Source: Candidatus Heimdallarchaeota archaeon
GTDB taxonomy: Archaea > Asgardarchaeota > Heimdallarchaeia > Heimdallarchaeales > Heimdallarchaeaceae
DNA length: 40,359 nucleotides
Assembly: GCA_016840095.1 (NCBI GenBank)
Contig: JAEOSZ010000028.1
Coordinates: forward strand, 1 to 40,359
Direction of reading: 5' to 3'
Shown: piece by piece, positions 14,643-34,163 of the stretch
How the letters are laid out: every line of letters starts with the position of its first letter
Numbering within the stretch: the stretch's first letter is position 1
Notes under the pieces: model-generated
Told to the model about the DNA's origin: nothing
Databases searched by the model: none
Seen by the model: the letters and a program-made list of their open reading frames with translations, nothing else
Made by a program: the position numbers and the translations under genes

Positions 14643-15509
14643 ATGCAAATTGATAATCATAAGTGTTTTAGTTTAACTAAGAAAGGAAATTCCAATCCAG
14701 AACAATTTATAAAAAATAGATTCAGAAGAGTAGACACTGTTACTAAATCTTTCAAATTGATTCATCCTGAAGATCTGAATTTGTATATGACAAACCTAAA
14801 AGAAAAATTCAGTGAGTATGTAGGCAATTATATTTTTAATACTGATGCATTTGACTGGAAAGTTCTTCAGGAAGAGTTAGAGATATTACCAAATTTTCCT
14901 GAACTTGAAAAACTAGTTTTCTACTATATATGTAAAACAATAAAGTTACCTGAAAATTATTCTTCAGATCAAGGTGAAATAGAATTGGGATATTTTAACA
15001 GAATCAAAGCTCTTGAAAGAGTATCCTATTTTGTAGTCAGAACATTCGTAGATACCTATGGAAAAGAAATAGGAACTGCTATTTACAAAGAAATAGTTCC
15101 ATATCTTCTAGAGGATATGAGGTCGAGAGATACATCTGAAAAACCAGAAGATCCAAAGACTGTTACGATTTTAGATCCCCATAAGAGAAATTTAGATTCA
15201 TGGTGCAAATCAGGATTAGCTGATTTTTCTTACCATATTTTTGATGATTACAAGGTAGTATATCGTTTTGATAGTTGTTTGACCCCTGAAGCTCTGAAGG
15301 AGTTTGATGATCCTGATATAGCTTACTTAAGTTCTTGTTACATCGGCGATGTTCCTGAATTTAATATCGGTAGATCCATCAATCTTCGAAGAACACAAAC
15401 ACTTCACCACGCTAAGTTTTGCGATGAGCTGTACTGGAATAATTATGTTCATCCTGATACTGAACAACCTTCGCTGGAATTCACTGAAAATATTGGAAAA
15501 GATATGTAA
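14643..15509 (+). CDS. L-2-amino-thiazoline-4-carboxylic acid (ATC) hydrolase-like / V4R-fold protein, paralog 1
   Basis: RFDSCL, SSCYIGD, LRRTQTLHHAKFCDE C-terminal signature. Confidence 0.7.
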   Translation: MQIDNHKCFSLTKKGNSNPEQFIKNRFRRVDTVTKSFKLIHPEDLNLYMTNLKEKFSEYVGNYIFNTDAFDWKVLQEELEILPNFPELEKLVFYYICKTIKLPENYSSDQGEIELGYFNRIKALERVSYFVVRTFVDTYGKEIGTAIYKEIVPYLLEDMRSRDTSEKPEDPKTVTILDPHKRNLDSWCKSGLADFSYHIFDDYKVVYRFDSCLTPEALKEFDDPDIAYLSSCYIGDVPEFNIGRSINLRRTQTLHHAKFCDELYWNNYVHPDTEQPSLEFTENIGKDM

Positions 15510-15533
15510 AAAAAGGACAAAGGTGAATTCAAG

Positions 15534-16406
15534 ATGAAAATTGAGACCCACAAGTGTTTTAGCTTAACAAACAGAGGAAAATTTGAACCTGAGAAAATCA
15601 TCAAGGCTCAACTAGATAAAGTAGATTCTGTAACTAGAATGTTCAATAAAATTAAACCTAAAGATCTGGAGTTATATTTATCAAACTTGGAGAATGTGTT
15701 TAGTAAAATTGTAGATGATTATGATTTTAAGCAAGAAGCTTTTGACTGGGACTTAATCAGAAAAGATCTTGAACTTATACATAATTATCCTAAACTTGAG
15801 AAACTAATTTTTCTCTATACTTGTATAATCTTAGAAGTTCCAGTAGAATATGAATCTGGTCAAGGTGAAATAGAACTAGGGTTTTTTGATTGGATTAAAG
15901 TTCTCAGAAGAGTACCATATTATCTAGTTAGAACACTAGTAGATATTTATGGAAAACAGAAAGGAACTGAAATCTATAAAGAGATAGTACCTCTACATTT
16001 AGATGATTTGCTATCAAAAGGCAAGTCAGAAGAACCTGAAGATCCTAAATCTGTTAATATTCTTGAATTTAATGAAAGACAGATAAAATCTTGGTGTGAG
16101 TGTGGATTAGCAGACTTCGCTGTTTGTATTTATGATGACTACAAAGTTGTCTACCGTTTTGATAGTTGTTTAACTCCTGAAGCTCTTAAAGAATTCAATG
16201 ATCCAGATATAGCCTATCTGAGCTCTTGTTATCTGACAGATCATCCGAGATTCAATGAAGGAAGAATAATTCATCTTCGAAGAAAGCAGACACTCCATCA
16301 CTCTGAATTCTGCGACGAGCTTTATTGGAACAATTACGTTCATCCTGAAACAGAACATCCTGCATTAGAATTCATAGAGCATATGGGGAAAGATATGGAG
16401 GAATGA
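15534..16406 (+). CDS. ATC hydrolase-like protein, paralog 2
   Basis: Closely similar to paralog 1 (YKVVYRFDSCLTPEALKEF shared). Confidence 0.7.
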   Translation: MKIETHKCFSLTNRGKFEPEKIIKAQLDKVDSVTRMFNKIKPKDLELYLSNLENVFSKIVDDYDFKQEAFDWDLIRKDLELIHNYPKLEKLIFLYTCIILEVPVEYESGQGEIELGFFDWIKVLRRVPYYLVRTLVDIYGKQKGTEIYKEIVPLHLDDLLSKGKSEEPEDPKSVNILEFNERQIKSWCECGLADFAVCIYDDYKVVYRFDSCLTPEALKEFNDPDIAYLSSCYLTDHPRFNEGRIIHLRRKQTLHHSEFCDELYWNNYVHPETEHPALEFIEHMGKDMEE

Positions 16407-16409
16407 ATA

Positions 16410-17282
16410 ATGGAAGTATTTAGAACAGGTCAGTATGATATTAGTGATCTAGAAAGGTTACAAGAAATCCAGCCACTAGATTATGCAAAAAAAAGTGTAT
16501 TGAAGAGATTGAACTATCTGATTGGTTATCTTAAGAAGGAAATGCCAGAGATCCTTCCAGCTTTTGTTACGAAATTGCAAAAGAATTTTGAGCAACAACT
16601 AAAGACTTCTCTCACAACTAATCAACAATTGGACTTGAAAGAGATAAGTAAAGATTTCTTACATTTGAAGATCTATCCAGATTTACTTAAGCCTGCCTTA
16701 GATTACTTCCTACAATTGCTTGATTATAGTAGTACCAAAAAATGGTTATCTGAAACTATTAAGATACCAAATAGAAACCATATTCAATCATTTCTATATC
16801 ATAGATACTTCAATGCTTTAACTTTGACAGAAATACTAGAAAGAAATCAAGCTGTTAGATTGTTCAAAAGCTATATTGAATCCTATGTGAAATCACTTTC
16901 AGCTTACGGTTCAAAATACGATACATTGGAGGATTTTAGAAATGCTCGAATTCCTAAGGAAGATGATCCTCCAAGCATAGGGTGGGTAATTGTACAGGGA
17001 AAAATTGAGAATGGAAAGTATCCTCAAAGAAAAGATACATGCATGTGGGCAGATGCAATAGATGAATTACCAGATGTAGAATTGAGGTATCTTGCAGCTT
17101 GTTATGGAGATTTTCAAGGTTACAATAACTGTAACGAGAATTTCATCCTAACAATGAAACATACAGTAGTTGAAGGACATCCTTATTGTGATTGCATAAC
17201 TCACGATGTAAGGATAAATAGTGATCTAAATCATCCTTCTAGGGAATTCTTTGATGATTTATGGTCTCAAAAGGATAAATGA
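16410..17282 (+). CDS. ATC hydrolase-like protein, paralog 3
   Basis: KDTCMW, ACYGDF, LTMKHTVVEGHPYCDC. Confidence 0.75.
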   Translation: MEVFRTGQYDISDLERLQEIQPLDYAKKSVLKRLNYLIGYLKKEMPEILPAFVTKLQKNFEQQLKTSLTTNQQLDLKEISKDFLHLKIYPDLLKPALDYFLQLLDYSSTKKWLSETIKIPNRNHIQSFLYHRYFNALTLTEILERNQAVRLFKSYIESYVKSLSAYGSKYDTLEDFRNARIPKEDDPPSIGWVIVQGKIENGKYPQRKDTCMWADAIDELPDVELRYLAACYGDFQGYNNCNENFILTMKHTVVEGHPYCDCITHDVRINSDLNHPSREFFDDLWSQKDK

Positions 17283-17303
17283 AATCAACAAGAGCTGTAT
17301 TAG

Positions 17304-18179
17304 ATGGAATTTAAGGAAAAAGGAAGATATAATCCAGAAGCTTTGGATTATATGGAAAAAGTTCAACCACTTGAGTTTGCAAAACTTTCTCCCCTAAGAA
17401 GATTAAACTACTTATTAGATGTTGTTGAGAATTTAAGATCAGATAGCCTTCAAGAGTATATTGATATATTAATGAAAAATTACAAAGAGAAAATAGATGT
17501 TGAATATATTGATTCTAGCAATCCCTTTCTACTGGAGTTTCTTGAAGATTTAGATAGTTTGAAGAACTATCCTGAGTTAGCAACTTATAATATCAACTTC
17601 TTTCTCAATATTCTTGATTTACCACAGAATAATAAGTGGAAAGTTGAAAAAATGGAAGTCCCTCAAGCAAACTTTCTCAGATCATTCTTAGTGCCAAAGT
17701 ATGTGAATTTGAAATCATTAGTGAAAGCTGTAGGTAGAGAAGAAGGAATTAGCATCTATAAAAAATACATCACAAGCTTCCTTATCTCAATTCATAAAAA
17801 TCAAGAAGATGAGATTGAGGATTTGAGATCACTTCATCAAAAATTTTTTGAAGAAGAACCCAAAGAATCAGAAAGTTGGGTAGTTATCCACAGTGAGCCT
17901 GTAAATGGTAAGCTAGTGTTTAGAAAGGATGTTTGTTTGTGGAATGAATCTCTCTCAGATTTAACTGATTTAGAATTTAAATTTCTAGTCTGCTGCTATG
18001 GAGATTTTCAAGGAATAAGAAGTGAAAACAGTCATTTTATTCTAACAATGGATCATACTATTGCTAAAGGAGATCCTTATTGCAGTTGCATAGTGCATGA
18101 TACAAGAATTGATTGGAAGATAAATCATCCACCGAAAGAATATTGGGATAATATTTGGCCCCTACATGAATGGCAATAA
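17304..18179 (+). CDS. ATC hydrolase-like protein, paralog 4
   Basis: KDVCLW, CCYGDF, LTMDHTIAKGDPYCSC. Confidence 0.75.
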   Translation: MEFKEKGRYNPEALDYMEKVQPLEFAKLSPLRRLNYLLDVVENLRSDSLQEYIDILMKNYKEKIDVEYIDSSNPFLLEFLEDLDSLKNYPELATYNINFFLNILDLPQNNKWKVEKMEVPQANFLRSFLVPKYVNLKSLVKAVGREEGISIYKKYITSFLISIHKNQEDEIEDLRSLHQKFFEEEPKESESWVVIHSEPVNGKLVFRKDVCLWNESLSDLTDLEFKFLVCCYGDFQGIRSENSHFILTMDHTIAKGDPYCSCIVHDTRIDWKINHPPKEYWDNIWPLHEWQ

Positions 18180-18274: not shown

Positions 18275-20299
18275 GTGTTGAAACTCAAACTCATTTGCAA
18301 TAAGAATCAGTTAATTCCCATAACACTTCTGATTCTAATTTTCTCTCTATCTTATTCACAAGATTTTCGATATGAGTTAGGTAATTTAGATGTTCAAGAA
18401 TTTGAACAGATCAAACTAATTGCATCAGAAGCAATTTTTATTGATTCCTCTGATGATTTTATTACTTACGGCTTTAATGGATCTGGTTTATCAAGTGATC
18501 CTTATGTTATTGCAAATCTATCCATTAATACAGCTGAAGATTATGGGATTTATGTTGGTGGGATTACTGAATATTTCATTATATTGGGGTGTACAATTGA
18601 TGCATACTTAGGTGGTATATATATTGAAAATCTTCCATCAGGAATAGCTACTATTTTCGATAACACTTGTAACTTTATCAAAGGAGGGTCAGGAATATCG
18701 TTCGTAAATGTAGTTAACTGTACAATTAAGAAAAACAGCTTGATAAATAACAAAATTGGTATCTATGGTCATTCCTCATCATTGAGTCAAGTGAAAGAGA
18801 ATGATTGTAAATTTAATACAGAAGAGGGAACACGATTTGATTATTGTACTGAAATCAATATTGAAAACAACACTATGATAAATAATTACGGAAGAGGGGT
18901 ACACGTTGAAAATTCAAACTATATGGAAATAAAGAACAATACGATGTACAACAATTTTATTGGGATTTATTTTAATGTAGTTAATGAATTATTAGTAATT
19001 GATAATTGGGTGGATCATCATCTGGTAGGAATTCATGGATTCGGATCAATGGATGGTTTATTTGTTTCAAATTTTATATATGATTCTGACTCTTTTGGAA
19101 TGAGCTTTGGCGAATATCTAGTAGAGGGTCCAGAGAGTCTTAACAATGAAATTTATCACAACTATTTTGTTGGAAATAACTTGAGATGGTACACATATGG
19201 ATCACAAGCTTATGATTATGCAAATCAATGGTATGATTCTTTAACATTGACCGGAAACTACTGGAGCGACTATAGAAACGAAACTTCATTTTATGAACTT
19301 GCTGGAGAGAATACTGATCCTTACCCAATACTAGCTCCTGACAGTGATGCAGATGATTTAGATGATATTGTAGAAGAATACATATACTTCACAGATTCTT
19401 TGTCCAATGATACTGATTCAGATAATCTCACAGATGGGGAGGAGGTTCTAGTATACTTTACAGATGCTCTCAATATTGATTCTGATTTTGATCAACTAGA
19501 AGATGGAGAAGAAATTTATGTATATTTCACATCACCAACAAATGGTGATTCAGATTTAGACGGATTAGAAGATGGGGCTGAGGTATACGACTACGGAACT
19601 AATCCTACAGATATAGATAGCGACGATGATTTGATGGAGGATGGGTACGAAGTATTCAATGACTTAAATCCGACACTGAATGATTCATTTGAGGATTTAG
19701 ATTCAGATGGATTAATCAATTTAGAAGAGTTCAATCTCAAAACTGAAGCAAATAATAATGATACAGATGGAGATTTACTTTTGGATGGAGACGAAGTGTT
19801 AATTTATCTTACAGATGCAAAACATGAAGATTCGGATTATGATGGATTGAATGATGGTGAGGAGATATTTACCTACTTAACATCACCTACTAATGATGAC
19901 TCGGATTTTGATGGGTTAGAAGATGGTGAGGAAGTTCTAACACACCATACGAACCCTTTGAGTGAAGATTCAGACTCTGATGGCATGGACGATTACTGGG
20001 AAGTACTTTTTGGATTGAATCCTCTACTTGATGATGGTGAAGGAGATTTAGATGAAGATTATCTAACCAACTTAGAAGAGTATGATCATAAAACTTTTCC
20101 AAATGATCCTGACACAGATGGTGATTCATACACAGATTTTGAGGAACTTAATTATGGTACTGATCCTTTGGATTATACCGATTATCCATCGTTTATTCAG
20201 GAGAACAAAGGTGGTTTCTTAGCTCTTGTTATAATTCCTAGCCTTGCAGTATTCTATGGTTTAGGTTATTTACTGATTAAGAAGGTAAAACTATTTTAG
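18275..20299 (+). CDS. cell-surface protein: NosD/parallel beta-helix plus thrombospondin type-3-like Ca-binding repeats and C-terminal TM anchor
   Basis: Signal-like N-terminus, NNxxGI repeats, GNYWSDY, DSDxDGLxDGEE repeats, C-terminal TM plus KKVK. Confidence 0.85.
   Translation: MLKLKLICNKNQLIPITLLILIFSLSYSQDFRYELGNLDVQEFEQIKLIASEAIFIDSSDDFITYGFNGSGLSSDPYVIANLSINTAEDYGIYVGGITEYFIILGCTIDAYLGGIYIENLPSGIATIFDNTCNFIKGGSGISFVNVVNCTIKKNSLINNKIGIYGHSSSLSQVKENDCKFNTEEGTRFDYCTEINIENNTMINNYGRGVHVENSNYMEIKNNTMYNNFIGIYFNVVNELLVIDNWVDHHLVGIHGFGSMDGLFVSNFIYDSDSFGMSFGEYLVEGPESLNNEIYHNYFVGNNLRWYTYGSQAYDYANQWYDSLTLTGNYWSDYRNETSFYELAGENTDPYPILAPDSDADDLDDIVEEYIYFTDSLSNDTDSDNLTDGEEVLVYFTDALNIDSDFDQLEDGEEIYVYFTSPTNGDSDLDGLEDGAEVYDYGTNPTDIDSDDDLMEDGYEVFNDLNPTLNDSFEDLDSDGLINLEEFNLKTEANNNDTDGDLLLDGDEVLIYLTDAKHEDSDYDGLNDGEEIFTYLTSPTNDDSDFDGLEDGEEVLTHHTNPLSEDSDSDGMDDYWEVLFGLNPLLDDGEGDLDEDYLTNLEEYDHKTFPNDPDTDGDSYTDFEELNYGTDPLDYTDYPSFIQENKGGFLALVIIPSLAVFYGLGYLLIKKVKLF
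19330..20185 (+). repeat. coding tandem repeats (~22-23 aa, DxDxDGLxDGEE)
   Basis: About 12 degenerate units visible in the protein sequence. Confidence 0.8.
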
Positions 20300-20340: not shown

Positions 20341-20739
20341 ATGAGTGAACGAGAAGTGAAGTATTATAAAATGCTAACAAAATTCTATAATACTAAAATG
20401 AAAAACTTTGATGTTAAGGAAGATCTTGATGAACTAGAAGGAAAGAAAGTCTATTTCAAAATGAAAAATGCTGAAATCAATAAGGAGATTCAAGAACAAT
20501 TGCTAAAAATCCGAAAAATGAAAGAAGGAGGAAAAGGCGACAAAGCATTAAAGGAAGAAGCTAAACTCAAGAAGAAAGAATTAGCAATTGCTGAGAACAA
20601 AAAGAAGATTCAGAGTATTATGACAAAAATAGATAAGAAAAAAGGAGAATTTCAAAAAGTTAGAGCTGATATGGAAAAAGCAGAACGAGAAATTAAAACT
20701 GAATTTTCAGATAAATTTACTGAGTTATTAACTGAGTAA
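20341..20739 (+). CDS. Lys/Glu-rich coiled-coil (helical hairpin) protein
   Basis: All-helical composition with a central GGKG turn; directly upstream of the E2. Confidence 0.75.
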   Translation: MSEREVKYYKMLTKFYNTKMKNFDVKEDLDELEGKKVYFKMKNAEINKEIQEQLLKIRKMKEGGKGDKALKEEAKLKKKELAIAENKKKIQSIMTKIDKKKGEFQKVRADMEKAEREIKTEFSDKFTELLTE

Positions 20740-20864: not shown

Positions 20865-21431
20865 TTGGTTCAAACCAGACAAAATATCACTAAATTAAAG
20901 GTGACTAAAATTAGAAAACAAAGAATTATCAAAGACTATGATGCACTTAGAAAACTCCATAAGGAAGGTGTGATTAATCAAGTAAAAGCATTTCCAGGAA
21001 AGAAGAAATCAATGGAACACGTAGCTGTTGGTTTTGTTGGTCCAAAAGGAACTCCATATGCTGGCGGAAAATACAAATTAGAGATTTTATATGGTAAAAA
21101 CTATCCGTATAAACCTCCATACGTTCGACTACATACACCAATTTGGCATCCAAATTTCTGGCCAAATCCCAAAGAATATCCAAATAAAAGAAACATCTGC
21201 TTAGCTTTGGTTGATAATGAATTAGTTGGAAAACATGATGGATGGTCTCCAGCTAAGAATATTACTACGGTTATATACTCAATTCTTGCTATGTTCAATG
21301 TTGAAGGAGCTTATGTTAACCCTAAGGACGTATTTAACAAAGAAGCTGCTTTAGAATTCTTGAATGATAAGAAGAAATTCATTAAAAAGGCTTCAACAAT
21401 TAGCAAGAAATACGCTAAATCCTTCTGGTAA
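20865..21431 (+). CDS. ubiquitin-conjugating enzyme E2 (UBC fold)
   Basis: GPKGTPYAGG, YPYKPP, WHPN, catalytic Cys (NICL, codon 21198-21200), WSPA, NKEAA. Confidence 0.95.
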   Translation: MVQTRQNITKLKVTKIRKQRIIKDYDALRKLHKEGVINQVKAFPGKKKSMEHVAVGFVGPKGTPYAGGKYKLEILYGKNYPYKPPYVRLHTPIWHPNFWPNPKEYPNKRNICLALVDNELVGKHDGWSPAKNITTVIYSILAMFNVEGAYVNPKDVFNKEAALEFLNDKKKFIKKASTISKKYAKSFW

Positions 21432-21458
21432 AATAATAAAATAAAGAAGTGAGCTTTA

Positions 21459-22178
21459 ATGGAAGATGAAAATGATTTTCCTGAGCAATATAAAGTGTTG
21501 CTCAAAAAAATAGAAGCTTTAGAAAAAGCATTAGGACTTAAAGATGTTGAAGATATCCTCAAGGATAAAGTTGATGTAGAAAAAGAAATCTCCGAAGAAA
21601 CAATCACTGAGGAAGATCTACAGATTAAACAAAAGAGTGAGATAGTGATTTCACCTAAGGCATATCTTAAACTAGCTAAACATGCACTAACTTTCGCAAA
21701 TAAAAATATACCAAAGAAAGATTGGGTAGAAGTCATTGGATTACTTACTGGGAGAATAAGACATGAAGATACACCACTTGAGCAGATTTTTGTAGAAGAT
21801 TATTGGCCAGTTGACCAGGGAGATGCAATTAGTGTTGAAATTGTTGATCAAAGGATTTTTACAGAGATTTTTAACAAAAAAGACCAGGACCATTTCATTA
21901 TAGGCTGGGCCCATTCTCATCCAAGCTACTCTCCTTTTCTAAGCGATGATGATTTTCGAACACATCGTAGATATCAAACCTTTTGGAATAAATCAATAGC
22001 TGTAGTTCTTGATCCTCTAATGATATCACCAAAGAATTTTGGAGTAGGGGTTTTCAGAATACATCAAGATAAGAAATCTTACTATGATTTAACAGTGGAC
22101 ATAGATGGTTTGAGCAGTGAAGCAAATTATGAATCTATCAGTCTTTTCATGAAAAATAAGCAAGAAAATGATTCGTAA
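21459..22178 (+). CDS. JAB1/MPN+ (JAMM) metalloprotease, Rpn11/CSN5-like deconjugase
   Basis: EVIGLL and GWAHSHPSYSPFLSDDD (intact E...HxH-x7-S-x2-D). Confidence 0.95.
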   Translation: MEDENDFPEQYKVLLKKIEALEKALGLKDVEDILKDKVDVEKEISEETITEEDLQIKQKSEIVISPKAYLKLAKHALTFANKNIPKKDWVEVIGLLTGRIRHEDTPLEQIFVEDYWPVDQGDAISVEIVDQRIFTEIFNKKDQDHFIIGWAHSHPSYSPFLSDDDFRTHRRYQTFWNKSIAVVLDPLMISPKNFGVGVFRIHQDKKSYYDLTVDIDGLSSEANYESISLFMKNKQENDS

Positions 22179-22202
22179 AGTAAAAAGAAAGAAGGGCTAT
22201 AC

Positions 22203-23315
22203 TTGGAACTAAATAACATTAAGACATACTTAGCAATCGCAATAGTAGGATCAACTGTAGGAGTGCTGTATGGAGCAATTGAAAAAGATGTACCAAGAAC
22301 ACTGACTATCTTTTTCATAACTGTGTATGCTGTTATAGCCTTACGATTCATATTAGAAAGAAGACATTATAAGAAACATAAGACAATTCTTGCAAGTACT
22401 CAATTCTTGATATTGCCATTCTTGATTATGTTAATGGGAAACTATATTTCCCCTATAGCTTTCACCTACGAGATATTCGGAATAACCTCAGGGGGAGGTT
22501 CATTCTATTCTCCTTTCAATCTAATCTCAATATCGTTAATACTTCCAGTAGTTATTCTCTCAGTTTACTTTGGAAATTACTATTCAGGCAAATGGCCAGC
22601 AATTGCCATTAATAGAAAAGTAAGAAAAGGAAGAAAAATTCCCTTCTTGATACATACACTTTATGTTGCGATTTTCCTGTTAGGATTTTTCATAAACTGG
22701 CAAATTGATTTTGTATGCTTAATATTTGTTATTCTGTATATTGTGTTCATCTTCAGATACTTCATAGTAGTATATGCTGTGAAATCTAATCAACAAGTTA
22801 GTGTATCTGCCACCAGACGTTCTACTACAGCTAGATCCACTCGCTCATCAACATCAACAAGAAGAACAACTTCTTCTTCAGCAAGTAGTTCTCGTTCATC
22901 TTCAACTAGAACAACTCGACCTACTTCAACAAGAACAACAGCTAGTAGAACAACTCGATCCTCAAGTGTAAGAGTCGATCCAGGGATAGATGTAAGAACA
23001 GCAAAGACTAAAACTACTAAGAAAACTTCAACAACTAAATCTGTTTCAAAAAGTATATTCCCAATAGGAACTCCGAAGAAAGACGAGATGAAATGTATTA
23101 TCTGTTATATGGATTTTGATAAAAAAGATAAGAGAAGAATAATTTTGTGTCCAAATTGTCGTTATCCAGCTCATGAAGATGAATTCATAAGTTGGTTTAA
23201 GACATCAAGGCTTTGTGCTAGATGTAATCAAACAATTTCAACTAGATATGTAAATAACCCTAAATATCGAATAAGTATAAGAATTTATATTGAAAAAGTG
23301 ATTGAGAAGCTATAA
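22203..23315 (+). CDS. 6-TM membrane protein with S/T/R-rich linker and C-terminal RING-variant finger (putative E3 ligase)
   Basis: CIIC-x14-CPNC-x4-H-x2-E...W-x6-CARC at 23094-23225; located in the E2/JAB cluster. Confidence 0.85.
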   Translation: MELNNIKTYLAIAIVGSTVGVLYGAIEKDVPRTLTIFFITVYAVIALRFILERRHYKKHKTILASTQFLILPFLIMLMGNYISPIAFTYEIFGITSGGGSFYSPFNLISISLILPVVILSVYFGNYYSGKWPAIAINRKVRKGRKIPFLIHTLYVAIFLLGFFINWQIDFVCLIFVILYIVFIFRYFIVVYAVKSNQQVSVSATRRSTTARSTRSSTSTRRTTSSSASSSRSSSTRTTRPTSTRTTASRTTRSSSVRVDPGIDVRTAKTKTTKKTSTTKSVSKSIFPIGTPKKDEMKCIICYMDFDKKDKRRIILCPNCRYPAHEDEFISWFKTSRLCARCNQTISTRYVNNPKYRISIRIYIEKVIEKL

Positions 23316-23388
23316 AAATTAGTGTAGCCAATTATTTAAAAACTGTAAAGTTATACGCATGATGAACCATATAAACTAGGATGATAAA

Positions 23389-23976
23389 ATGGCAACTTGG
23401 AAACAATTATCTGCTGCATTCTTACTCTCTCTAACATTGGTAGGAGTATCAATCTATTTCTTCATAGAAGATAATGATTTCCTTGGAAAAGTATTCATAT
23501 TCGCAGCAATATTTGCCTTTCTAACACTTTTCGTAATTTTCAGGAGCCTGTTTTATCTAAAGCATAAAGCAACTTTTAATGAAGTATTTTTTGTTTTCAT
23601 TGTTCCACTTATACCTGTTCTTCTAATTCTAACTCAGGTATTGCTAGGAATTTATGATTCTTTCATCATAACAACAGTAGAAATAACTCCAGATTTTCCA
23701 ACTTACTTCTTTTACATTAATGCAATGGATTTTGCTCTATTACCATATTATATAGTAAGCAACTTCTTGATATTTAGAACATTCATCAGATATCCATTTA
23801 TTAGAATGAAAGGAACAAGTGAAAAAGGAGCTCCACCTAAATTCTTCGGTTTTCTGGTGATGTTTATTATTCCTGCAGTATATATTCTAACCTCATGGTT
23901 CTATTTTGAAAATCTATTCTTGGTAATCTTTGGAGGAGTTTACTTCTATTCAGCACTGTTAATGCTGTTTGTCTAA
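23389..23976 (+). CDS. 6-TM membrane protein, RING-less paralog of the E3 membrane domain
   Basis: Collinear shared motifs with 22203..23315 (IE, YxKHK, N...LP...S, [WY]PxI...KG). Confidence 0.75.
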   Translation: MATWKQLSAAFLLSLTLVGVSIYFFIEDNDFLGKVFIFAAIFAFLTLFVIFRSLFYLKHKATFNEVFFVFIVPLIPVLLILTQVLLGIYDSFIITTVEITPDFPTYFFYINAMDFALLPYYIVSNFLIFRTFIRYPFIRMKGTSEKGAPPKFFGFLVMFIIPAVYILTSWFYFENLFLVIFGGVYFYSALLMLFV

Positions 23977-23988
23977 AAAATAAAATAC

Positions 23989-24699
23989 TCATTTTGGTTT
24001 CTTTTGCTTAGGTTGCTTTGTTTGTGAAGGGTATTTCTGAGTAGGTATTTTTGATTTAGGTATTTTGTCTTGAATAATTTCTTCTATTTGAGATGCAACA
24101 GGAGATGCTCTTTCTTTCTTCTCTTTCTTCTCTTCTCTAGGAATAGGTTTTGAATCCATGCTTTCTATTTCAGAGAATTTATCTTTGTCACTTGCTGGTG
24201 GAACTTCCTCTTTTTTCTCTCTTTCTCTTTTCTCCACAGCCTTAGATTCCATACTTTCTACTTCTCTAAATCGTTCTCTCTTTGGAATTACTTCTTCTTT
24301 CTTATCTTTAGTTTTAGACTTCTTCTCTTCAGGAACATATTTTAGATCTTTAGTTTCTTTGATTTTATCTTGTTTTGGAATTTTTGACTTTGGAATCTTC
24401 TGTTTAGGAATACTTGAGCTTCTTCTAGATGTTTCTTTAAATTGCTCTCCCCTTGGTGCTTTTTCCTGAATTTTTGCTTTTGGTATCTGAGAACTACTTT
24501 TTATGCTAGTTGATTTTTTCATTTGTGATTTTGTTGGAATTGAACTTGCTCTATCCTTTTTTTCTTTTTTAGGAGGGATTAAATTTTGCTCATCTATTCT
24601 TTGTTTAGGTATTTTCTGTTTTGGAATTTTTGAATCTGATGGATACTTCTGTGAAGGAACCTTTGATGAGATGTTTTTCTTCTTCTTTTTGTTTGACAT
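23989..24699 (-). CDS. Lys-rich intrinsically disordered repeat protein (IPK/SxIP repeats)
   Basis: 236-aa ORF with KIPKQ/KIPKS repeats, QKYPS twice, FxExESMxSK twice. Confidence 0.75.
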   Translation of the reverse strand: MSNKKKKKNISSKVPSQKYPSDSKIPKQKIPKQRIDEQNLIPPKKEKKDRASSIPTKSQMKKSTSIKSSSQIPKAKIQEKAPRGEQFKETSRRSSSIPKQKIPKSKIPKQDKIKETKDLKYVPEEKKSKTKDKKEEVIPKRERFREVESMESKAVEKREREKKEEVPPASDKDKFSEIESMDSKPIPREEKKEKKERASPVASQIEEIIQDKIPKSKIPTQKYPSQTKQPKQKKPK

Positions 24700-24954
24700 A
24701 TGTAAGTCATATCCATTTATTGCCTTTCTTCTAGTTGTTCATTCCTCGAAATACCTCGAATTTCAGAACTTCTGTTTCTCTGTTCTAAGTGCTTTTAAAT
24801 ATGGTTTAGTATATCTAGTTAGTATTTCTATATTTACATTACTATTTTGCCCCTTTAGAATACTAAAGAAAAATACTTTTTATAGCGAAAAACGGTAGTT
24901 TTTTAATAGCCCTTAACAATATAGATAAATTGTAATAAACAAGGAATGGTTATT

Positions 24955-25302
24955 ATGAGCGAAGAATTTGAAGAACTATCTTTCGATGAAGAAGAAGAGG
25001 AATTTGAAGAAGAAATAATTTCTAAAACTCCTGCAAAAGAGAAGACACCAGGTGGTAAGAAAATTAGTGTTTATTTCCAAAGCACTATAGGACCATCACC
25101 AAAGCAAGAAAAACTAGTTGTTGCTACAGATGCACCAATAAATGACATCAAATACACTGTTAGTCAAATATTTGGGCTACCAGCAGATGAATTTCATTTA
25201 TCACATGCAGGTAGAACCTGTGATCCAGATGATGTCTTGGAAGATTACGGAGTTGAAGATGGAGATACCATTCTACTTATCCCAGTATCAACAGCAGGAT
25301 AA
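24955..25302 (+). CDS. ubiquitin-like modifier with acidic N-terminal extension, ending ...IPVSTAG
   Basis: beta-grasp pattern IKYTVSQIFGLP...LSHAGR...LEDYGVEDGDTILL; C-terminal Gly; adjacent to E1; alternative start 24946. Confidence 0.9.
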   Translation: MSEEFEELSFDEEEEEFEEEIISKTPAKEKTPGGKKISVYFQSTIGPSPKQEKLVVATDAPINDIKYTVSQIFGLPADEFHLSHAGRTCDPDDVLEDYGVEDGDTILLIPVSTAG

Positions 25303-25317
25303 ATAGAAATCAAAGTC

Positions 25318-25354
25318 AGAGAAAGTATTTCTCTTTCTCTTTCATTCATTTTTC
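25318..25354 (+). terminator. possible hairpin plus pyrimidine tract between UBL and E1
   Basis: AGAGAAA-GTA-TTTCTCT followed by TTCTCTTTCATTCATTTTT. Confidence 0.35.
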
Positions 25355-25401
25355 AAACAAAACTTTATTTTTTATGAACTTGTGATAGAATATTAATAGG
25401 G

Positions 25402-26661
25402 ATGTGTACAATGAACGATAAACTTAAACAACAGTCGAATTTTTTCAGTGAAATATTTTCCGAAGAAGAAACCAAAAGATTTGATAGACAACTTAGATTA
25501 CCAGGATGGAATCAAAAAGCTTTGAAAGATTCTGTTGTAGTAATTGCAGGAATTGGGGGATTAGGGACTGAAATAGCCAAGAATTTGGCAATGGCAGGAG
25601 TAGGAACAATGCACTTAATTGATTTAGATATTATTGAATACTCTAATCTTAACAGACAGATACTATTTTCAGATGCTGATGAAGGAGAACCTAAATCCAA
25701 AGTAGCTGCTAGAACTCTAAAAAAAATTAATCCATATAGTAAGTATATTTGGCATTATTCAAATCTTGAAGATGTATCTCCTGAAATTTATGCAACAGCT
25801 GATTTATTGATTGCTGGATTAGATTCTGTAACAGCGAGATCTGAACTCATCAGAAGAGCTGTTCATTTTCAAAAACATATGATTGATGGAGGAACTGCAA
25901 CTTATTATGGACATGTTTACACATATTCTCCTGGAGTGAATGCGTGTCTTCAGTGTGATCCACAAACTGAAAGAGAAAGAGAAACCCTAGCAGCTTGTAC
26001 TCTAGTTGGGATACCAAGGAAGAGATCACATTGTCTACTTAAAGGACAATTGTTTTTTGAATCTAAAAATAATAGACCTCCAGATACCTCAGCTAAAGAG
26101 GAAATGTTAATCGTTCTAGATTACGCAAATAACTTGGCTACTGAACATTTCCCTGAACAAGGTCAATTTACTCTTGATGAAGTAGTAAAGATGGTTGATC
26201 AGCATGATCCAACAATCATCACAATTAATGCTGTAATAGCTTCACTTCAATCCCAAGAAGCACTGAAGATTTTACATCATGTTAAAGGAATCAAACTTGG
26301 AACAGTTAATACAGACTATGTTATTTACAACGGTTTAGTTGGGAAGTTCTTTTATCTAGAAAAACCTCCAAATAAGAAATGTGCATTATGTGGATTACAT
26401 GCTACTATTATAGAAGAAATCACGATACCTGCTACTTCAACTGTTGATATGCTTCTTTCAATCATTAAGAACAAGGGATATAGTTATGACCCTGAATATG
26501 GGCCTTCTTTCTGGTTAATCGATAAGAAAGACCCAGAAGATGTGGAATTAAATAAAACATTGAAAGAGCAAAATATAAGAAATTTTGAAACTCTCTATGT
26601 TACTGGATTGCTGAAAAACAATAAAGAAACGGATTTGTACATAAGACTTAAACTTAGATAA
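25402..26661 (+). CDS. ubiquitin-like activating enzyme E1 (ThiF family, UBA3/UBA2-like)
   Basis: RFDRQ, GIGGLG, DLDIIEYSNLNRQ, CLQC and CALC Zn site, catalytic Cys in AACTLVGIPRKRSHC, C-terminal UFD-like region. Confidence 0.95.
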   Translation: MCTMNDKLKQQSNFFSEIFSEEETKRFDRQLRLPGWNQKALKDSVVVIAGIGGLGTEIAKNLAMAGVGTMHLIDLDIIEYSNLNRQILFSDADEGEPKSKVAARTLKKINPYSKYIWHYSNLEDVSPEIYATADLLIAGLDSVTARSELIRRAVHFQKHMIDGGTATYYGHVYTYSPGVNACLQCDPQTERERETLAACTLVGIPRKRSHCLLKGQLFFESKNNRPPDTSAKEEMLIVLDYANNLATEHFPEQGQFTLDEVVKMVDQHDPTIITINAVIASLQSQEALKILHHVKGIKLGTVNTDYVIYNGLVGKFFYLEKPPNKKCALCGLHATIIEEITIPATSTVDMLLSIIKNKGYSYDPEYGPSFWLIDKKDPEDVELNKTLKEQNIRNFETLYVTGLLKNNKETDLYIRLKLR

Positions 26662-27153: not shown

Positions 27154-27537
27154 TTATTCTCCTTGTAAAAGAATATAGTAGATATTGTAAATCATTCTCT
27201 GTAGCTTCCCATCTTCTTGTGTCTTCTTGTAAATCGATTTAAGGTCAACTTTGTTTCCTGATTTCTCAGTCAAATTAAATTCATCTTCAGTTCGAGAGTA
27301 ATGGAAATCGAATTCACCTTCAAAAAACTTCTTCAGAAAACTTACTTTTCCTTCTTCTAAAATATCTTCAAATTCCCAATAAGAAATCCCAAAACCTGCT
27401 TCAGGGGGGAGTATTCCTTGTTTAATTGAGTTAAGTACAATCTCTTCTTCTTTGCAATGTGGACACTTAACTAGTTTAAAGAGATCTTTGTAGTCTTCAT
27501 CAAAATCCTTTTTACAGTTTTTACAAGTGAACTTCAT
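27154..27537 (-). CDS. N-terminal zinc-ribbon hypothetical protein
   Basis: MKFTCKNC...KCPHC; start moved to ATG 27537. Confidence 0.7.
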   Translation of the reverse strand: MKFTCKNCKKDFDEDYKDLFKLVKCPHCKEEEIVLNSIKQGILPPEAGFGISYWEFEDILEEGKVSFLKKFFEGEFDFHYSRTEDEFNLTEKSGNKVDLKSIYKKTQEDGKLQRMIYNIYYILLQGE

Positions 27538-27630
27538 CCTATTACAGTAAGAATATTGACTTATAAGAGTATGCAAAAAAAATTATATCCTCATTTTTCT
27601 CTCTAAAAAGGTTCAAGAACACTATAGTGG

Positions 27631-28905: not shown

Positions 28906-30612
28906 ATGTCTAAAGAAGATTGTTCATTTGAATTTGATTCTTTCTTCAAAGTGATTAAAATGACTAAAAATCTAAAAGAGTATCATAGTGAAATAATCAA
29001 TCGAGCAGATGCAGAGATTCTAGAGGAGATTGAACTTATCATTGATGAGGAAATTCCCAAAGTAGTTCAAATAGATAGAGATACCTTTGGATACCAATTA
29101 GATGATAAGAAAGTAATTGGATTAGGTTTATCTAGAGGAAAGTTGAAAGAAATTCCTGAATGTATATTTGGATTAGTTAACCTTCAGTGCTTAAGAGTTC
29201 GGTTTAATGATTTTGCTTCACTTCCAAAAAAACTATTTGAGATGACTTCTTTAAAAATTCTAGATGTTGCAGGCAACAAGTTAAAGAAGTTTCCAGAAGA
29301 GATAGACAATCTAGTAGATCTTACAGTTCTGAGTATTGGTGGAAATCCACTTGAGGAATTACCAGAGAGTATTGGAAATCTAAGAAAACTTGAATATTTT
29401 TATTCAAACTTTACTCCATACAAATCACTTCCAGAATCTATTGGAAATTGGAAATATCTAAAACAACTGTGGGTAGAGTTTGGGGGTCTCGAAGCACTTC
29501 CTGAGAGTATCGGATCTTTAGAAAATCTTGAGGAACTGCTTTTGGAAGAAGCAAGAATTAGCTACATTCCAGAAAGTATAGGCAACCTAACTAAGCTTAG
29601 AGGAATTCAACTAGAAAATAATCTTCTGAAAACTATTCCAGATAGTGTATGCAATCTTGTAAATCTTAAGTATTTAGTACTTAGGTTCAATGAATTGACC
29701 TCTTTACCAGATAAAATAGGTAATTTGAAGAAAATGCAGGGTTTCGCTCTTAATAACAACAGATTAGAATCTTTACCAAAAAGCTTCTGCGAATTAACAA
29801 ACCTAAACCAGATTTGGTTGCAACATAATTGTCTCACAACACTTCCAAAGAATTTCGGGAAATTGAAAGACCTTACGTATTTATATCTTCATAATAATAA
29901 TCTAGAATCTCTTCCAGAAAGTTTTGGAGATCTTCTTAACTTGTCTATACTCAATCTTCAGAATAACAAAATATCAAAGCTTCATGAGAGCTTCTGTAGA
30001 TTGGAGAAAATAGAAAACTTAAAGCTTAATCATAATCAATTAGAATCTCTTCCAGAAGATTTTGGTTCGCTAGTTACATTACATGACTTGTATCTAAGTG
30101 ATAACAAACTGACTTCTCTTCCTTCAACTATAACAAATCTAGAAAATATTCAAATTCTTGATGTATCAAGCAATCAACTGAAATCTCTTCCTGAAGACAT
30201 TCATAAGATGTTAAAACTATCTGTTTTAAAAGCTGAAGACAATAGATTTAGAGAAATTCCTCCAGATATAGTTAAACTTGAATCACTGCAGGAATTATGG
30301 TTTGGATATAATTACATCTTTTCTCTTCCTGAAAAAATAGGAAATCTCAAAAACCTTCAAAAAATCATGATGAGAGGAAGTTGGCTTGAAACCTTACCTG
30401 ATAGTATAGGATTTCTAACTGAACTTACACATATTGACATGAAATCGAGTTATCTGGCAGATTTATCTTCTCTCCCAAGTACTATTCTGGAATTACCCAA
30501 ACTAAAGTACTTGTGGATAAAAAGACGCTATTGGATCGAACTAACTGAGAAAGATGAAGAGAGTGACATTTACCAGAAACTAGAATCGAAAGGATGTATT
30601 ATATATAATTAA
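28906..30612 (+). CDS. leucine-rich repeat protein (~20 x 23-aa repeats)
   Basis: LxxLxLxxNxLxxLPxxIGxL repeats. Confidence 0.95.
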   Translation: MSKEDCSFEFDSFFKVIKMTKNLKEYHSEIINRADAEILEEIELIIDEEIPKVVQIDRDTFGYQLDDKKVIGLGLSRGKLKEIPECIFGLVNLQCLRVRFNDFASLPKKLFEMTSLKILDVAGNKLKKFPEEIDNLVDLTVLSIGGNPLEELPESIGNLRKLEYFYSNFTPYKSLPESIGNWKYLKQLWVEFGGLEALPESIGSLENLEELLLEEARISYIPESIGNLTKLRGIQLENNLLKTIPDSVCNLVNLKYLVLRFNELTSLPDKIGNLKKMQGFALNNNRLESLPKSFCELTNLNQIWLQHNCLTTLPKNFGKLKDLTYLYLHNNNLESLPESFGDLLNLSILNLQNNKISKLHESFCRLEKIENLKLNHNQLESLPEDFGSLVTLHDLYLSDNKLTSLPSTITNLENIQILDVSSNQLKSLPEDIHKMLKLSVLKAEDNRFREIPPDIVKLESLQELWFGYNYIFSLPEKIGNLKNLQKIMMRGSWLETLPDSIGFLTELTHIDMKSSYLADLSSLPSTILELPKLKYLWIKRRYWIELTEKDEESDIYQKLESKGCIIYN

Positions 30613-32363: not shown

Positions 32364-34163
32364 TCAAATCTTTAAAGAAAAAAGTTTTCCAGAAGTGACT
32401 GACTCTTCATGCTGCAATTGCTTCATTGATTCTTCTATTTTCACGTGCTCTAGCGTTTCTTTTAATGGAGCTTTCCTTTCTTGAAGACTTTCCCATAGTT
32501 CAATTTTTTCTGTTAATCTCTCTTGTTCTTCGCGAATACTTGACACAATACTTGTAAGTCCTTTTTTCTCTGCAATAGTATAACCTTTTTCTAATAGAAG
32601 CCTAGTTTCCTTCAAATCAAGCTCAGCTAAAGCTAGCAGAGCCTCTAATCTATATACTTCAGCAAGAATTGAATCTGACGATTGCTCTTCCGCAATTATC
32701 TTAAGTTTTTGTAATAAATCCTTAATCTCATTCAAAAGCTCCATTTCTGCTTTTTCTTTTAATTCTTGTATAAGAAGATCGCATAGGTTAACCATAGCTT
32801 TAACTGTTAATGAATGATCTACTATCTCTTCTTCTATTATCTGTTCAAGAAGAACTATTGCTTTAGTTTTATCACGGGAATGGCGACTAATCTTAAGTGA
32901 AAGAGCTTGAGCTAATCGAAATCGTTGATTAACTGATCGAACATCTGTTGTCTTGTTTATTTGTTGAAACTTCGCTAAATAGTCTTGAACTAATTCATGC
33001 TTGTTTTGTCCAAGAGCAACTTGTATTAGCTCTAGAAATACATATGCAATACCTAAAGTATTGCCTATTTCTTCATAAGAATTTAGGCTTTGATTAAAAT
33101 ACTCAAATGCCTCTGAAATGTTCCCTTTAATCTTATAGATGTAACCTGTGTTAAAAAGAAGTAAAGCAACTTTCTCCTTAATACCTATTTCCTTGTAAAG
33201 TTTCATACTTCTCTCGTAAAACTCCAGAGCTAAGTCAGGATTACCTCTCAATTCATGAATATTTCCAATGTTATTAAGAGCGAGAGCGATATTGGATTTG
33301 GAATTAACTTCCTCACTTAGAAGAAGCCCCTCTTGATAGAAATCTAAAGCTTGATCCAAATCACCTTTTAATTGATATACTACACCTATATTGATGAGTG
33401 TCATAGCAGTATCTGTTTTTGAACTTCCTCTTCTTCGTATTTCTAGACTGCGATGTTGATACTCTAATGATTTATCTAAATTACCTTTCGTTGAAAATAC
33501 ATTCCCCAAATTAGACAATATCTGGGCAATATTTTTCTCTCTCCCTAGTTTCTCAGACATATTCAAAGCTTTTTGATAGTATTCAACTGATTTATCCATA
33601 TCACCTTTGGACCAATACACTAAGCCAATATTATTGTATGAACTAAGAATGGATAATTCACTTTCAATCTCTTTCCCTATAGTTAAGCATTTTTCATGAT
33701 ATTCTAAAGCTGTATCAAGATTCCCACTATACCAATGAAGAATACCTCCATTTCTAAGAAAATTATATTTTCTTTTTTTGAAACGATTCTCTGACTTCTG
33801 AGTAAGTTTCTTCTCAATCTCTGAAACAAATTTCAGATTTTCCTCAAAAATTCTCATCCCTTCTTCATTCTTGCCCATCCTCCATAATGCGCCAATCTTA
33901 GTATTAAGATAATCTAAAACCAATAATGGATTCTCGGTTGTTTGAACTTCTGACCATATTTTCTCTATGTTTTTGTATGCTTTTTCTCTCTCTCCCAATC
34001 TGAGATTAATTTGTGATTCTAGCAATATACAGGCAAGCTTCTCCTCGTCGGATATCTCGTCTTTACTTGAGATATTATCCAACAATTCTTGAGCTTTCTT
34101 GTAATTTTCCTCAGAAATCAAATTCTCTATATTGAGTATTTCTGCAATCACGCTTTCTGTCAA
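32364..34163 (-). CDS. tetratricopeptide repeat protein
   Basis: Repeats of NNIGxVYxxKGDLDxALEYYxxAL. Confidence 0.92.
   Translation of the reverse strand: MTESVIAEILNIENLISEENYKKAQELLDNISSKDEISDEEKLACILLESQINLRLGEREKAYKNIEKIWSEVQTTENPLLVLDYLNTKIGALWRMGKNEEGMRIFEENLKFVSEIEKKLTQKSENRFKKRKYNFLRNGGILHWYSGNLDTALEYHEKCLTIGKEIESELSILSSYNNIGLVYWSKGDMDKSVEYYQKALNMSEKLGREKNIAQILSNLGNVFSTKGNLDKSLEYQHRSLEIRRRGSSKTDTAMTLINIGVVYQLKGDLDQALDFYQEGLLLSEEVNSKSNIALALNNIGNIHELRGNPDLALEFYERSMKLYKEIGIKEKVALLLFNTGYIYKIKGNISEAFEYFNQSLNSYEEIGNTLGIAYVFLELIQVALGQNKHELVQDYLAKFQQINKTTDVRSVNQRFRLAQALSLKISRHSRDKTKAIVLLEQIIEEEIVDHSLTVKAMVNLCDLLIQELKEKAEMELLNEIKDLLQKLKIIAEEQSSDSILAEVYRLEALLALAELDLKETRLLLEKGYTIAEKKGLTSIVSSIREEQERLTEKIELWESLQERKAPLKETLEHVKIEESMKQLQHEESVTSGKLFSLKI

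Follow-up and report, generated by a model that had tools for sequence, protein, structure and literature searches.

The DNA examined here is a stretch of 40,359 nucleotides from a Candidatus Heimdallarchaeota archaeon (assembly GCA_016840095.1, contig JAEOSZ010000028.1), referred to at its full length as the window. The region from 20865 to 26661 contains seven genuine genes, six on the plus strand and one on the minus strand, which probably encode a dedicated, membrane-anchored ubiquitin-like protein (UBL) conjugation system running in parallel to the canonical ubiquitin/ESCRT system. The description as a membrane-anchored UBL conjugation system is well supported. An earlier note on this DNA had proposed a self-contained module of UBL, E1, E2, RING protein and JAMM protease built around a membrane protein, and all of these parts were present with their catalytic equipment complete and intact. 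The six members that it listed were confirmed as genuine open reading frames (ORFs) on the plus strand with unchanged coordinates, while a seventh, the gene for a lysine-rich protein on the minus strand (23989-24699), had been omitted although it is a conserved member of the module. The genes and their parts are:

20865..21431, plus strand: E2, a UBC-fold conjugating enzyme (UQ_con, E 8.8e-26; HPN motif and catalytic Cys)
21459..22178, plus strand: JAMM/MPN+ isopeptidase with an N-terminal extension of ~60 aa (PF01398, E 1.7e-12; intact HxHx7Sx2D)
22203..23315, plus strand: TM-RING, 370 aa, polytopic E3 candidate (six hydrophobic segments, C-terminal RING)
22203..22790, plus strand: six-helix membrane domain of TM-RING, residues 1-196 (hydropathy and AlphaFold2 (AF2) model)
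22791..22988, plus strand: disordered Ser/Thr/Arg-rich tether of TM-RING, residues 197-262, lacking Lys (predicted local distance difference test, pLDDT, < 50)
23073..23315, plus strand: C-terminal RING domain of TM-RING, residues 291-370 (invariant ligand pattern, RNF24 profile match)
23389..23976, plus strand: TM2, 195 aa, RING-less paralogue of the membrane domain of TM-RING (hhalign)
23989..24699, minus strand: Lys/Pro-rich disordered protein, 236 aa, 25% Lys (composition; conserved neighbour of TM2)
24946..25302, plus strand: UBL with acidic N-terminal tail (~40 aa), beta-grasp core of ubiquitin type and C-terminal end ...IPVSTAG (PF00240, E 1.5e-6, above cut-off)
25402..26661, plus strand: E1 of UBA3/UBA2 type with adenylation domain, catalytic-Cys region, CxxC...CxxC zinc site and C-terminal beta-grasp domain resembling a ubiquitin-fold domain (UFD) (ThiF, E 1.6e-52)

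The synteny search suggested in the earlier note revealed the same gene set in ~30 related loci, so that the grouping of these genes is far beyond chance. These loci are labelled as Heimdallarchaeota, Hodarchaeota and Promethearchaeota metagenome-assembled genomes (MAGs), with one Hermod and one Thor. The order UBL-UBL-E1-E2-JAMM-TM-RING-TM2 on one strand was seen in ~20 loci labelled Heimdall-, Hod- or Promethearchaeota, with the Lys-rich gene following in the Hod-type, and the genus of the window has a rearranged version in which a single UBL gene is present and the Lys-rich gene is inverted. The JAMM gene was located directly upstream of TM-RING even in the most distant family member. Conservation is lost outside the block, which extends from the UBL genes through the Lys-rich gene and is therefore a unit.

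A profile of the membrane domain of TM-RING gave matches in 53 of 400 genomes of the phylum, all belonging to four families of one class and each containing a single copy. When the 83 genomes of this class were examined, 49 yielded both an E2 orthologue and TM-RING and 30 yielded neither, the remaining 4 being discordant and fragmented MAGs; these counts are descriptive. The membrane genes therefore occur together with the module, syntenic across families and with a shared pattern of presence and absence, where the earlier note had allowed that they might not. The system was found in Heimdall/Hod lineages only, forming part of one class, and does not extend to Asgard archaea in general. A small conserved protein of ~105-127 aa accompanies the module in Hod-type and f3 loci (L041:5581-5898, minus strand; L015:3308-3691, plus strand; L013:6516-6866, minus strand). 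It carries the N-terminal motif S-x-x-A-W-x-x-L-x-x-x-K-F-x-L...S-Y-S-D-V, may be a regulator, and no homologue of it was detected in the window.

A canonical ubiquitin-ESCRT cluster is located on another contig of the same genome (locus L045; G000 contig C118:12000-21595), and the locus in the window is thus a second, parallel UBL pathway. The canonical cluster encodes a 78-aa ubiquitin ending in KGGL, a 334-aa E1, a 469-aa UEV-Vps23-Vps28 fusion, the ESCRT-II subunits Vps25 and an EAP30/Vps22-36 protein, Vps4 and two Snf7 proteins, and its contig stops just beyond the ubiquitin gene.

Modifier, activating and conjugating enzymes, and protease

The UBL matched ubiquitin and the ubiquitin-like protein of Caldiarchaeum in the PDB (6fnn_C/6fj7, ~1e-4), and is thus a beta-grasp modifier whose terminal Gly is free to be adenylated. 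The Gly-Gly end of canonical ubiquitin is absent and every orthologue has Ala-Gly instead. The terminus IP[VHFI]STAG was found in 34 of the 34 UBL genes checked in related loci, including both paralogues, and about one third of these bear 1-3 further residues, as in the form ...STAGK. The description of the UBL as non-canonical in the earlier note was therefore correct, the conserved end being S-T-A-G, and a STAG end with occasional short extensions is the pattern to be expected if processing uncovers the Gly for subsequent conjugation. Most lineages contain two tandem UBL genes (L011-L013, L029-L043) with ~50% mutual identity, both encoding acidic N-terminal tails and the STAG end, and the genus of the window contains one.

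The closest solved relatives of the E1 are UBA3 (2.7e-31), UBA2 and UBA1, with the catalytic Cys (in the segment A-A-C-T-L) aligned, and the enzyme belongs to the eukaryote-like "active subunit" type. The AF2 model had a pLDDT of 80.8 and aligned with UBA3 over its full length (419 columns, Foldseek E 6e-24), with residues 336-418 forming a beta-rich region at the place of the UBA3 UFD. The adenylation domain, catalytic Cys and UFD of an E1 could all be located by sequence and structural alignment to UBA3.

The E2 has the UBC fold, an HPN motif (as WHPNFW) and an active-site Cys (as NICLAL), separated in the PDB alignment by a stretch that carries a 7-residue insert. Its best PDB match was UBE2T (6e-15), with many E2 families matching about equally. 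The ORF as listed begins with TTG at 20865; the true start is probably GTG 20901, giving a protein of 176 rather than 188 aa, because the orthologues begin at the equivalent position and the sequence points there.

The JAMM motif H-S-H-x7-S-x2-D was intact in the translation and the upstream Glu is present, completing the set E...HxHx7Sx2D. The closest PDB structure was the Rpn11-like protease of Caldiarchaeum subterraneum (6fju, 1.1e-12), and this is probably the enzyme for processing and deconjugation of the UBL. The N-terminal extension of ~60 residues (21459-21640) is conserved and helical, carries the motif Y-K-x-L-L-K-K-I-E-A-L-E-K and lies outside the coverage of the Rpn11-like structures; it may help the protease to dock on the membrane ligase.

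The combination of Ubl, E1, E2 and JAB resembles that of bacterial defence operons (10.1101/2023.09.26.559546), and with the patchy presence within the class it could suggest an anti-virus module that tags viral proteins in the manner of the bacterial Bil and CBASS-associated E1/E2/JAB/Ubl operons. This is very unlikely. The PADLOC matches were restricted to the generic E1 Rossmann region (BilD, 6e-5) and weak JAB matches, with none for the E2, UBL, RING or TM2, and the neighbours of the locus are ordinary metabolic and membrane genes. The E2 orthologues are 59-93% identical across the four families, and this conservation following the families, the single copy per genome and the stable synteny argue for vertical inheritance rather than the turnover of defence islands.

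The membrane-embedded RING protein and its paralogue

The hydropathy profile of TM-RING revealed six hydrophobic segments, with loops rich in Lys and Arg at residues 52-60 and 124-145 and after the sixth segment. Because of these positive charges both termini are predicted to be cytoplasmic, which would place the RING on the same side of the membrane as the E1, E2 and UBL. In the AF2 model the pLDDT was mostly > 90 in the membrane domain and > 93 in the RING, with residues 203-281 disordered. The membrane domain is strongly conserved and contains the invariant polar residues E52, S65 and Q67. When 1.84 billion representative proteins were searched with its profile, the family amounted to 42 clusters, nearly all of them alike in length, and the named public records of its members are "hypothetical proteins".

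The C-terminal finger has the pattern C-x2-C-x14-C-x2-C-x4-H-x2-E-x10-C-x2-C. Residues C298, C301, C316, C319, H324, E327, W331, C338 and C341 are invariant in the alignment of 33 members, so that seven canonical zinc ligands are retained and the sixth position is occupied by an invariant Glu, E327, rather than Cys or His. The family profile matched the RING-H2 domain of RNF24 (E 1.3e-6), with E327 on Cys ligand 6 and W331 on the conserved Trp, and the best Foldseek matches were mostly RING/U-box E3 domains (probability at most 0.98; TM-score normalised to the target, 0.5-0.7). Together, the invariant ligands, the RNF24 match and the Foldseek matches identify the finger, by sequence and predicted fold, as homologous to RING domains, with canonical residues at seven ligand positions and an invariant Glu at the sixth. 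Both W331 and the aliphatic residue of the C-x-[IV]-C knuckle sit where RING domains contact the E2. As the sole RING in the conserved block, TM-RING is the only E3 candidate of the module, with presumed ligase activity.

The unusual sixth position also admits a reading in which the membrane protein is not a ligase, its finger serving as a docking or regulatory module, for example as a membrane receptor for the UBL machinery, and conjugation proceeding without an E3 as in SAMP/Urm1-type or E2-direct systems. The Pfam RING matches agree with this in all falling below curated cut-offs (zf-RING_2 was matched by 11 of the 33 family members, at best 9.9e-6), and the genome contains other, soluble RING proteins. 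This reading is, however, at odds with a Glu that never varies among the 33 sequences and aligns precisely with ligand 6 of RNF24, with the presence of the Trp and knuckle residue at the E2-contact positions, and with a fold matching RING/U-box E3 domains in a protein that is the only RING of the block and co-occurs with the E2. A role other than that of a ligase is accordingly considered quite unlikely.

TM2 lies directly downstream of TM-RING in most loci. The earlier note had described this second membrane protein as having six transmembrane segments; the hydropathy scan gave five, and six are implied through homology to the membrane domain of TM-RING. BLASTP of TM-RING against TM2 gave no significant match (E 1.6), but when the profile of the TM-RING membrane domain was aligned with that of TM2 using hhalign a probability of 95% was obtained over TM1-4 (E 2.9e-8), and on this basis TM2 is an old, RING-less paralogue of the membrane domain of the ligase. 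Thirteen columns of TM2 are invariant among 18 sequences. No match to TM2, to the Lys-rich protein or to the membrane domain was found in Pfam, NCBIfam or PADLOC. The gene linkage suggests that TM-RING and TM2 associate physically. When residues 1-200 of TM-RING, with an alignment of 33 rows, were co-folded with TM2, with one of 18 rows, the ipSAE was 0.00 in both runs, made without controls, a value that counts neither for nor against binding.

When the membrane domain was compared with the PDB using Foldseek there was no match, and a wide search with VIA-align gave matches at the noise level only. The highest of these was human HRD1 (9uav_B, Z 8.0, rmsd 3.4 over 115 residues), followed by unrelated helical bundles at 7.5-7.9, and it falls within the range that the tool states to be noise for helical proteins. 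No sequence match of the membrane domain to Hrd1 was found in Pfam or in profile searches.

These comparisons bear on the proposal, made in the earlier note, of quality control resembling endoplasmic-reticulum-associated degradation (ERAD), in which TM-RING and TM2 would recognise or help to extract misfolded membrane proteins and the UBL would mark them for degradation of Cdc48/proteasome type. A polytopic E3 candidate with a cytoplasmic RING has the architecture of Hrd1 and gp78, and the paralogous partner subunit is reminiscent of multi-subunit ERAD ligases. The membrane domain would also be more than an anchor, given its strong conservation and invariant polar residues, and its highest structural match was to HRD1. 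That match is, however, tied with unrelated bundles, and it is not collinear relative to the RING because TM1-4 are paired with the final HRD1 helices. Genes of Cdc48, proteasome, derlin/rhomboid or Sel1/Hrd3 type were not found in the conserved block or in the window, to which the search was confined. The module was furthermore not found in closed or near-complete relatives, which is a poor fit to core quality control, and possession of its own Lys-rich partner points to a specific target. The ERAD-like proposal was consequently not borne out and is regarded as unlikely. An extension of it, in which TM-RING and TM2 would be the two subunits of a membrane ligase ancestral to the eukaryotic polytopic complexes of Hrd1-Der1 type, so that UBL-dependent recognition or extraction of membrane proteins would have arisen in Heimdall/Hod-type archaea before the endomembrane system, is improbable.

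Lysine distribution and the proposed conjugation pathway

The membrane-proximal part of the tether between the membrane domain of TM-RING and its RING (residues 197-262) contains 0 Lys and 13 Arg, compared with a K/(K+R) of 0.71 for the other proteins of the window (binomial p = 1e-7). This stretch contains 0 Lys in 20 of the 33 family members, and its Lys fraction is below that of the member's own RING domain in all 33. Lysine deserts are known in disordered ubiquitin-proteasome proteins (PMC10169902, PMC10665810), and a Lys-free, Arg-rich tether would shield the ligase from tagging itself.

The protein encoded next to TM2 shows the opposite composition, with 22% Lys over the family alignment and a K/(K+R) of 0.78. 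K-[IT]-P-K motifs at both of its ends are kept across lineages, and orthologues conserved in composition and termini adjoin TM2 in all three lineages; in Hod-type loci the gene lies directly downstream of TM2 on the same strand. Within the module, of which it is a conserved part, the Lys-rich protein is the foremost candidate for acceptor or substrate of the UBL, a role that is tentatively assigned to it and judged somewhat less likely than not. The Lys-free tether set against the Lys-rich partner provides a concrete and testable substrate hypothesis.

The pathway proposed for the locus would begin with the UBL, which carries the acidic tail and is readied with its S-T-A-G end, orthologues bearing 1-3 extra residues being trimmed by the JAMM enzyme. 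The terminal Gly would be adenylated by the UBA3-like E1, which would form a thioester and hand the UBL via the UFD-like domain to the dedicated E2. The E2~UBL would then dock on the cytoplasmic RING of the six-helix protein, probably partnered by TM2, and the UBL would be moved to lysines of proteins that lie on the cytoplasmic side of the membrane. The modification would be undone by the JAMM enzyme. We infer these biochemical steps, the E3 activity, the pairing of TM-RING with TM2, the substrate and the physiological role of the system.

The acceptor could in principle be a lipid, as in the known conjugation of Atg8 to phosphatidylethanolamine (PE) and the Tul1-dependent conjugation of ubiquitin to PE, in which case the membrane-embedded ligase would join the single-Gly UBL to an amine-bearing head group of an archaeal lipid. 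This would accord with a UBL that ends in a single Gly after Ala rather than in Gly-Gly, with a ligase that is integral to the membrane and has a conserved membrane domain and paralogous partner, and with the avoidance of Lys in the tether next to the membrane. The enzymes are nevertheless of other types, the E1 being UBA3-like, the E2 a standard UBC fold and the protease a JAMM enzyme, with no Atg3-, Atg7- or Atg4-type enzyme; there is no sequence sign of lipid binding, and the Lys-rich partner suggests Lys acceptors on proteins. Conjugation to lipid is therefore a highly improbable alternative to the tagging of proteins.

Several observations weigh against a dedicated membrane-anchored conjugation system as set out above. 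The canonical sixth ligand of the RING is absent, and the single-sequence Pfam RING scores are below cut-off. The module was not found in the related closed genomes G054 and G055, nor in several near-complete relatives, and its role is therefore dispensable; two single-contig genomes of the same family have neither the E2 orthologue nor TM-RING. The genomes compared are kin and not independent, and the co-occurrence counts overstate the support. Residues 263-290 of TM-RING, which adjoin the RING, hold 6 Lys, so that the Lys-free stretch stops before the RING and the composition bias can be read in ways other than self-protection. Instead of a substrate, the Lys-rich protein could be an adaptor or a binder of membranes or nucleic acids.

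The surroundings of the conserved block were examined as well. The other window ORFs scanned encode ordinary metabolic, membrane and repeat proteins, and no ESCRT or proteasome gene was matched among them, in agreement with the earlier note. An upstream ORF for a 132-aa coiled-coil protein (20341-20739) was considered as a member of the system and left out because no related locus contains a counterpart. No tRNA genes were found in the window, and promoter and terminator scans of the window were uninformative because a bacterial consensus was used. Four tandem paralogues of ~290 aa with weak ATC_hydrolase-like matches are located at 14643-18179, and the UBL locus is likewise bordered by arrays of this family in same-genus genomes (L018, L024, L025) and not in other families. 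A 140-aa zinc-ribbon protein is encoded at 27154-27576 on the minus strand; a 60%-identical copy adjoins the E1 gene in a genome of the same genus (L019 4542-4958), with none detected in the other loci. Large repeat proteins are found near the locus at 18275-20299, 28906-30612 and 32364-34163 (a NosD/beta-helix protein with bacterial TSP3 repeats, a 568-aa leucine-rich-repeat protein and a 599-aa TPR protein) and are not conserved with the module.

Relation to known systems

The kind of system is known, from the operon of Caldiarchaeum (PMC5654768) and from the Asgard ubiquitin-ESCRT and Helarchaeial cascades (PMC9192718; 10.1101/2023.07.25.550441). The operon of Candidatus Caldiarchaeum subterraneum contains ubiquitin, E1-like, E2-like, small RING finger and Rpn11-like JAMM proteins, and functional reconstruction of the E1/E2/(RING) E3 cascade is reported (PMC5654768). 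The same parts list is thus held in a single gene cluster there, and the JAMM protein and UBL of the window both match Caldiarchaeum proteins (6fju; 6fnn_C/6fj7). The RING protein there is described as small, whereas the one in the window has 370 aa, six membrane helices, an extended disordered tether and a Glu at the sixth ligand position. The window system also adds a RING-less membrane paralogue and a Lys-rich partner, and has a UBL ending in A-G instead of G-G, with two tandem acidic-tailed UBLs in most of the related lineages.

Ubiquitin-ESCRT systems have been described in Asgard archaea (PMC9192718), including a Helarchaeial E1/E2/RING cascade that acts on UEV-Vps23 (10.1101/2023.07.25.550441). 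They share with the locus the Asgard lineage, eukaryote-like E1 and E2 enzymes and RING E3s, and a cluster of this type is present in the same genome. The locus in the window is, in contrast, separate from it, with its own E1, E2, protease and UBL, no linkage to ESCRT genes, a membrane-embedded ligase candidate and an A-G end on the UBL.

The eukaryotic polytopic ligases Hrd1/gp78, Doa10/MARCH6 and Tul1 likewise consist of a multi-pass domain followed by a cytoplasmic RING, which in TM-RING would recruit soluble E2~UBL, and have a disordered cytoplasmic region. The membrane domain of TM-RING nevertheless has no detectable sequence homology to theirs, and the structural match to HRD1 is not above noise. 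The module also differs in having no ERAD partner genes and in using a dedicated UBL that lacks a GG end and is served by an E1 and E2 of its own. The RING-CH signature of MARCH and Doa10 is C4HC3 with C-x-C and H-x2-C spacing, whereas the window RING reads C-x2-C-x4-H-x2-E.

Among the modifier systems of eukaryotes, the NEDD8 and SUMO E1 subunits UBA3 and UBA2 were the best sequence and structure matches of the window E1, sharing the aligned catalytic Cys and the UFD-like domain. There is, however, no NAE1/SAE1-like partner gene at the locus, and for this reason the E1 is likely to be a homodimer. The E2 is not particularly close to UBC12 or UBC9, and its top PDB matches come from many E2 families. 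UFM1 (...VG) and Atg8 (...FG) expose a single C-terminal Gly, and have in common with the window UBL an x-Gly mature end and, in the case of some window-type orthologues, the need for removal of 1-3 residues. The core of the window UBL nevertheless scores as ubiquitin family, and the enzymes are a UBA3-like E1 and a UBC-fold E2 rather than UBA5/UFC1 or Atg7/Atg3. Ufm1 homologues have been reported in Asgard archaea (PMC12962969).

In the openly available papers that were searched, no polytopic RING protein with Glu as the sixth ligand was described in an Asgard UBL operon, nor were a RING-less paralogue, A-G-ending UBLs (paired in most lineages) or a Lys-rich partner. The RINGs of archaeal operons were not described there as membrane proteins, and those of Asgard archaea were discussed mainly in connection with ESCRT.

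The locus represents a second self-sufficient UBL pathway in Heimdall/Hod-type Asgard archaea, with a candidate ligase that is built into the membrane. The parts are small and their catalytic residues identifiable, which makes reconstitution in vitro feasible, and the first Hodarchaeales cultures have been reported (10.1101/2025.02.26.640444). Such cultures make tests in vivo conceivable. If the system is active, parallel UBL pathways and membrane-embedded RING ligases, which have been thought of as eukaryotic, would already be present in close archaeal relatives. Heimdall/Hod-type Asgard archaea are the archaea usually placed closest to eukaryotes, and since this second complete gene set has a six-helix membrane protein as its only ligase candidate, ubiquitin-style tagging at the membrane probably predates eukaryotes.

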